Assembly (NCBI GenBank): GCA_000004695.1
Contig: CM000153.2
Span: forward strand, 512,001 to 576,000
DNA: 64,000 nt
Source of the DNA: Dictyostelium discoideum
Taxonomy: Eukaryota
Direction of reading: 5' to 3'
The notes under the pieces were generated by a model that saw only the letters and a program-made list of their open reading frames with translations, was not told the origin of the DNA and ran no database searches. A program made the position numbers and the translations under genes. Shown one piece after another: positions 6,010 to 9,263 of the stretch. The stretch's first letter is position 1, and every line of letters begins with the position of its first letter.

Positions 6010-9263
<3,254 letters not shown>

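Follow-up and report, generated by a model that had tools for sequence, protein, structure and literature searches.

Why is a gene of the Tgr family divided between two open reading frames in the genome of Dictyostelium discoideum AX4, beside a paralog that is read without interruption, and does the break belong to the organism or to its reference sequence? The locus lies in a window of 64,000 nucleotides (the whole stretch of AX4 DNA that was analysed), which is very A+T-rich and contains poly-Asn and poly-Gln coding tracts. A first-pass annotation of this DNA had ascribed the break to an extra base in a T4/A4 homopolymer, arising either as a sequencing error or by recent inactivation of the gene, and had suggested that decay of one partner of the pair would be relevant to kin recognition.

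The + strand ORF (10271..12733) has 100% identity to XP_639162.1 / Q54R85 of D. discoideum AX4 and belongs to tgrI2, the spliced model of which reproduces the database protein exactly (Table 1); it is thus the intact paralogous partner that the first-pass annotation had recognised. The name follows Holland et al. (10.1101/2025.08.01.668227), in whose supplement the same sequence is labelled tgrI2_Ax4; among named paralogs in UniProt, Tiger protein I3 is the nearest (79%). The gene on the - strand is the tgrH-family partner of tgrI2, to which it is arranged head-to-head, with start codons at 9263 (-) and 10108 (+). This grouping is based on a published tree and on the identity of the peptide at the junction of the two frames: the AX2 copy of the gene (DD_AX2_00004136) is classed as tgrH, adjoins tgrI2 (DD_AX2_00004135) and is placed in the tgrH part of the tree (10.1101/2025.08.01.668227), and the junction peptide has 62% identity to a probable TgrH1 copy in another assembly (L005, below) versus 30-34% to TgrI copies. 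The unspliced ORFs of the window (both halves of the broken gene, the Dcp2 ORF, the tgrI2 ORF and a 620-aa ORF) had no exact database match, which is explained by splicing in the real gene models. Within the intergenic region common to the two divergent genes are three direct repeats of ~62 nt (9759-9820, 9829-9890 and 9969-10030; 73-81% identity to the reference copy), which may be promoter elements.

Five loci were compared with the window: those of D. cf. discoideum (L001), D. firmibasis (L002), a wild strain of the D. discoideum clade (L003, GCA_054859385.1), an ACTFIW strain (L004) and a long-read assembly (L005, GCA_054883475.1). The last shares identical tgrI2 and TgrI3 proteins with AX4 and thus probably corresponds to the AX2 genome in Holland et al.; the pair compared from it is a different one, probably tgrI1/tgrH1.

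Table 1. Positions, within the window, of features of the broken tgrH-type gene, its intact partner tgrI2 and the region between them
Feature	Position	Strand	Basis or remark
tgrH-type gene, exon 1: ATG and signal peptide MKRLVFLITFYLVSIVYSKTS	9200..9263	-	Sequence reading; spliced model equals UniParc UPI00004E2D19 / P0040
Intron 1, genuine (GTATGT...AAAG; 67 nt, 88% A+T)	9133..9199	-	Equivalent 61-nt intron in the L003 allele
Exon 2 as far as the premature stop; with exon 1, a 368-aa product	8090..9132	-	Spliced model
Pfam TIG match	8386..8171	-	Repaired protein
Interval spliced out by the AX2 model (GTATTT...GGAG; 67 nt, 1 mod 3, 75% A+T)	8058..8124	-	Jump in the AX2 model
Junction of the 11-bp deletion	8097..8101	-	DNA alignments with L001, L002, L003a and L003b
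T4 run (A4 on + strand); TGT-TTT-GGT = C-F-G	8095..8098	-	Unchanged relative to all homologs aligned
Premature TAA resulting from the frame shift	8090..8092	-	Sequence reading
Remainder of exon 2, out of frame: 694 open codons and stop	6010..8094	-	Colinear with the intact L003 allele
Transmembrane segment ATIIPVLGFLFFIGFVCFVLWFF	6819..6751	-	Hydrophobic by inspection; tail of ~245 aa after it
Intergenic (promoter) region common to both divergent genes (844 bp)	9264..10107	.	Three ~62-nt direct repeats inside
tgrI2 (DDB_G0283317), intact, 850 aa	10108..12733	+	Exact match to XP_639162.1 / Q54R85
tgrI2 exon 1 (76 nt)	10108..10183	+	Spliced model reproduces the 850-aa protein exactly
tgrI2 intron (73 nt)	10184..10256	+	Spliced model
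tgrI2 exon 2	10257..12733	+	Spliced model

Apart from the break, the features of the tgrH-type gene are intact. Exon 1 encodes MKRLVFLITFYLVSIVYS, a signal sequence by inspection, and the remainder of exon 2 specifies what is left of the ectodomain, followed by a transmembrane segment and a cytoplasmic tail rich in Asn; in AX4 the transmembrane segment and the tail are out of frame relative to the N-terminal part. IPT/TIG repeats were detected in the repaired protein (Pfam TIG, PF01833; 46 bits against a cut-off of 20.9) as three stretches. The isolated junction segment gave no Pfam TIG match in any of three versions (repaired by 11 nt, repaired by one T, or spliced as in AX2), and the lesion would lie at the start of an IPT-like domain as judged from the motif P-x-I-x-S...G-x-C-F-G only. 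The ATG at 8010, from which the downstream ORF was called, is an internal residue without a signal peptide, at a place where homologs have ETIMSF or ETTISF. In the part of the gene that encodes the tail there is a 207-nt tandem duplication (6244..6639 on the - strand; 1.9 copies, 82% matches), which repeats the motif NDIMADQQL[RK]L[IM]NRNKKNL...DVACSS, and the cytoplasmic tail of AX4 is 144 aa longer than that of the L003 allele. A Leu-rich ORF of 138 aa on the + strand (6173..6589) is the antisense of the Asn-rich tail, a low-complexity artefact and not a gene.

The upstream ORF (8090..9160, - strand) ends with ...SISNEFLTLFW and the stop codon TAA at 8092..8090, and the downstream ORF (6010..8010, - strand) is in the +1 frame, which is open from position 8103 after a TGA at 8106..8104, so that the two frames overlap by 11 nt only (8103..8093). 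The open stretches of 356 and 694 codons both exceed those of shuffled sequences of the same composition (mean ~57, maximum 116), and the proposal that a single Tgr-family gene is split here between two ORFs is upheld. Colinearity across the break, claimed in the first-pass annotation from comparison with the + strand paralog, was also borne out: the joined protein gave one continuous tblastn match across the junction in each of L001, L002 and L003.

The DNA alignments locate the lesion beside the homopolymer rather than in it. Four homologous copies from three other genomes have GACTTT(G/A)TATGGCCAATGTTTTGG or the D. firmibasis equivalent at this place, and AX4 has GACTTTGTTTTGG. Missing from AX4 are 11 nt, T(G/A)TATGGCCAA, with the codons Y-G-Q-C, from just upstream of the T4 run, and the sequence TGTTTTGG beside the break is the same in all homologs. 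The deletion can be placed in 2-4 equivalent ways, depending on the ancestral base, with a breakpoint ambiguity of 1-3 nt of T/TGT microhomology as found by enumeration. The shift appears to be of +1 because 11 is 2 mod 3. As judged from these alignments, the broken frame is an 11-base deletion and not a one-base slip in a homopolymer; thus the frame lesion that had been proposed stands, but the extra base in the T4/A4 run does not, since the run is the same in the homologs and the 11 nt are gone from before it. Two repairs of the AX4 sequence differ accordingly. If one T is removed, the frames fuse to encode a protein of ~1050 aa that still lacks 3 2/3 codons common to every homolog, whereas with the 11 nt put in place the result is one clean ORF of 1065 aa. 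The restoration of one ORF by three T in place of four, which had been put forward as a way to recognise an assembly error, does not recover the ancestral gene, and such a "fix" of the AX4 sequence would yield a false protein.

The motif that is interrupted in AX4 is conserved throughout the family members compared. G-x-C-[F/L]-G is uninterrupted in all 15 homologous copies in the compared loci (5 of TgrH type and 10 of TgrI type), and it is also unbroken in AX4 TgrH1 (...LTIYGQCLGE...) and in the database proteins P0001, P0002, P0003, P0039 and P0042.

Comparison with another strain, of the kind that the first-pass annotation had recommended, showed that the allele at the same position in the wild strain L003 is intact, retaining the 11 nt and the same T4 run. 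The L003 locus is colinear with positions 1..12810 of the window, with a PYM-like gene, Dcp2, the tgrH-type gene and an ortholog of tgrI2 in the same order. Its tgrH-type allele is an uninterrupted gene (921 aa) that has a signal peptide, an intron, a transmembrane segment and a tail, and in which the same exon 1 and intron as in AX4 are followed by one continuous exon. An intact allele is present in a wild strain, and therefore the pseudogene status of the window locus differs between strains. Between AX4 and L003, the tgrH-type gene as a whole has 81% amino acid identity (dN 0.105, dS 0.18, dN/dS 0.60), with dN 0.156, dS 0.259 and dN/dS 0.60 upstream of the lesion and dN 0.055, dS 0.12 and dN/dS 0.46 in the downstream ectodomain; the corresponding values are 91%, dN 0.046 and dS 0.127 for tgrI2, and 96-100%, dN 0-0.02 and dS 0.03-0.08 for the flanking genes. 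L003 is a diverged lineage, as the dS of the flanking genes indicates, and the polarity of the deletion therefore rests on the outgroups.

Both tgr genes diverge between AX4 and L003 far beyond their neighbours (dN of 0.105 and 0.046, versus 0-0.02), and the most divergent part of the tgrH-type gene is its first ~240 codons (dN 0.19-0.27). Downstream of the intact pair, L003 also contains a duplicated segment (13312..17924 and 19210..22071) with the 5' part of Dcp2, a 193-aa tgrH fragment in which the YGQCFG site is kept (14265..14846), and more tgrI copies.

The unrepaired, spliced coding sequence of AX4 specifies 368 aa that match the UniParc entry UPI00004E2D19 (P0040) residue for residue. 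This entry, which was found with a 604-aa query, is sourced via MetaClust only and has no current NCBI or UniRef entry; searches of NCBI and UniRef found no AX4 protein for the tgrH-type gene that includes its downstream half. The UniParc entry is taken to be an early predicted gene, dropped afterwards, as would be expected if the gene had been called a pseudogene. The status of annotated pseudogene is likewise suggested by the lack of an AX4 protein in NCBI or UniRef and by the AX4 tgr list in the dataset of Holland et al. (10.1101/2025.08.01.668227), where tgrH1 alone represents the tgrH subfamily. As predicted from the coding sequence, the product of the locus would be at most a secreted N-terminal ectodomain fragment of 368 aa, ending inside an Ig/IPT-like domain, and tgrI2 would be without an intact partner at its own locus.

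The corresponding gene of AX2 has been predicted as a protein. DD_AX2_00004136 is an automated model from a long-read AX2 assembly, with a protein alignment in the supplement (10.1101/2025.08.01.668227). Both sides of it are identical to the AX4 translation, but it jumps from ...NYDRPYISSY to IPSNFNNVKINDQ... at the lesion, so that ...RPYISSY is joined directly to IPSNFNN..., and TgrH1 has coding residues in the alignment columns that are skipped. The 67-nt "intron" to which this jump corresponds is probably not real. Only a broken frame would give the predictor cause to skip so conserved a coding piece; to judge by the shape of this automated gene model, the deletion is therefore most likely present in AX2 as well. 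Since AX2 and the AX3/AX4 line go back to NC4 by separate derivations, the allele probably comes from the wild isolate; this suggests that the lesion, if present in AX2 and NC4 as it appears to be, is real and was inherited from NC4.

An error of sequencing or assembly in the AX4 reference, whether by one T too many or by dropout of 11 nt, would leave the gene intact in the organism. The A+T-rich sequence of Dictyostelium is prone to error, and removal of one T does restore a single ORF, but the T4 run does not vary in length among the homologs and the difference consists of 11 nt beside it, which makes a homopolymer error, as the first-pass annotation had envisaged, unlikely. Dropout of 11 nt is an atypical Sanger error; the independently assembled AX2 genome gives a model that skips the site, and the old 368-aa prediction indicates that the sequence has been stable across releases. 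Overall, an error in the reference is very improbable. The lesion could instead be bypassed in the RNA, by splicing of a short interval across it to give a full-length membrane protein that lacks 22-52 residues of one Ig-like domain. The first-pass annotation had held that overlap of the frames excludes an intron, which was too strong a statement: 32 GT..AG intervals of 40-400 nt span the overlap and restore the frame, among them the one picked by the gene predictor for AX2 (GTATTT..GGAG, 8124..8058) and those from a GTAAAG donor at 8093 to acceptors at 7949 or 7937. All of these candidates are nevertheless coding-like in composition (71-76% A+T, as opposed to 80-88% in three real introns nearby). 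Dictyostelium splice sites usually have a GTAAGT or GTATGT donor and a [T/A]AG acceptor, from which the GTATTT donor and GGAG acceptor are far removed; all homologs have conserved coding sequence where the interval lies, and splicing of it would be needed solely on account of the deletion. Each of the 32 candidates would take out conserved residues. A spliceosomal intron across the break was rejected on grounds of its coding-like A+T content and the conserved coding homology inside it, and rescue by splicing is considered very unlikely.

Translation might also cross the break by programmed +1 ribosomal frameshifting on U-UUU-U, if tRNA-Phe slipped from UUU to the overlapping UUU before UGG-UAA. 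A slippery UUUU does occur within the 11-nt overlap, one codon ahead of the stop, but the arrangement is not conserved, every homolog having a continuous ORF there, and in AX4 the site was created by the deletion itself; moreover the A-site codon is UGG, neither a stop nor a rare codon, and the product would be without the conserved Y-G-Q-C residues. Programmed frameshifting was rejected, the shift site and the two-frame arrangement being absent from homologs, and its probability is extremely small. It is also conceivable that the deletion changed the function of the locus rather than abolishing it, the 368-aa fragment being expressed and maintained or the orphaned tgrI2 being selectively beneficial. 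The upstream part does keep its signal peptide, intron and open frame. TgrB2, without a transmembrane domain, is strongly expressed and highly polymorphic (10.1101/2025.10.22.684067), and Holland et al. have speculated that partial cheating could be made possible by a C-type gene that lacks its B-type partner (PMC12745789). Retention of the fragment is not informative about selection, however, in so young a lesion, and the stop lies inside a domain rather than at a domain boundary. Expression in developing AX4 is low or undetectable for most tgr genes, and in QS33 at 9 h tgrH1 is represented by only 1 read and tgrI2 by only 7; TgrH and TgrI are without known function (PMC12745789). A change of function in place of loss is judged very improbable. 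That the deletion produced a secreted 368-aa ectodomain or an orphan ligand, tgrI2, which would alter recognition in the NC4 lineage as a decoy or by partial cheating, is suggested by analogy and would be a long shot; if true, it would provide a natural allele for testing tgrH/tgrI pairs as a second recognition system.

With these alternatives weighed, the tgrH-family partner of tgrI2 is very likely a young pseudogene, created by an 11-bp deletion in the NC4-derived laboratory lineage, in which tgrI2 remains intact. In the proposed sequence of events, the 11 bp T[G/A]TATGGCCAA would have been lost from exon 2 in this lineage between short T/TGT direct repeats, presumably by replication slippage or microhomology-mediated repair. 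Loss of these bases takes away the Y-G-Q-C codons of the conserved G-x-C-F-G motif and shifts the frame, so that translation stops two codons later at TGG-TAA. Cut off by this stop are ~700 codons, for the ectodomain beyond it, the cytoplasmic tail and the transmembrane helix between them, and the receptor-like partner would presumably be disabled beside an intact tgrI2.

Recent inactivation, the second of the origins that the first-pass annotation had offered, proved to be the best reading, as 694 codons are still open past the lesion. No further stops or frameshifts were found in these 694 codons, and the lesion is therefore young. Neutral divergence since inactivation is at most ~0.03 substitutions per site (95% bound, substitutions only), and no relaxation of constraint is seen downstream of the lesion relative to upstream in the dN/dS values given above. 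The absence of further decay fits a very recent event and is no argument against inactivation.

The nearest known relative in AX4 is TgrH1 (DDB_G0283323, paired with tgrI1), a member of the same subfamily. Both genes encode a signal peptide, an Ig/IPT-like ectodomain, one transmembrane segment and an Asn-rich tail, and both are head-to-head with a tgrI gene. TgrH1 is intact, with an exonic length of 3366 nt and an unbroken reading through the site, whereas the window gene stops at codon 369 on account of its 11-bp deletion; at the nucleotide level, the window gene and the probable tgrH1 locus of L005 are only ~70% identical. The Tgr family is rich in pseudogenes, as had been noted at the outset, with 26 reported in AX4. 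At tgrB/C loci the B-type partner is truncated in 13 of 25 and the C-type partner is full length in 24 of 25 (PMC12745789), and according to Polo et al. the loci of AX4 tgr pseudogenes can be intact in other strains (10.1101/2025.10.22.684067). The window locus resembles these AX4 pseudogenes and truncated tgrB genes as part of a birth-and-death family in which B-type or H-type genes are disabled beside full-length C-type or I-type genes, and in having a pseudogene status that depends on the strain. It differs in the scale of the lesion: the tgrB genes described in the literature are shortened or have deletions of >50 aa, and the window gene is complete but for a single small deletion. TgrB2, a TgrB paralog without a transmembrane domain, is similar in that the product consists of the N-terminal ectodomain only, but its expression and signatures of selection are documented, whereas the stop of the window gene is inside a domain and very recent.

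The window locus is thus an ordinary and essentially known kind of tgr pseudogene, although a search of the literature and its supplements did not find it named as a tgrH pseudogene. The present analysis adds a precise definition of the lesion, an intact allele and a false intron in an automated annotation, the importance of which beyond correct annotation is small. The difference between strains at this locus fits the birth-and-death picture of the tgr family. Through its invented intron, the AX2 model has likely led to a pseudogene being counted as a tgrH gene, a warning that tgr pseudogenes may enter repertoire counts as false coding genes. The relevance to kin recognition that the first-pass annotation had proposed is speculative, the pair being tgrH/tgrI2 and not tgrB1/tgrC1; with the functions of TgrA, TgrH, TgrI and TgrO stated to be unknown (PMC12745789), neither TgrH nor TgrI has a demonstrated role in kin recognition, so that the proposed link is unproven.

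Several further differences were noted among the compared loci. In D. cf. discoideum (L001, 3776..10001 and 9878..12109) the members of the tgr pair are ~6 kb apart, with three other called genes between them, and an adaptin gene adjoins the 3' end of the tgrH-type gene. The tblastn matches to this tgrH-type gene are in three different frames, which suggests other lesions or Nanopore indel errors. The ACTFIW strain has at least three tandem tgrI copies of 855-857 aa on the same strand (L004, 1..12633), between which the tgrH partner and the 3' end of Dcp2 persist as short remnants only; the remnants of tgrH do not reach the junction. The Dcp2 homolog of the window (3744..5800; exons 3744..4295, 4387..4451 and 4555..5800) encodes 620 aa, and between AX4 and L003 its poly-Gln/His tracts differ in length and its catalytic part is 100% identical.
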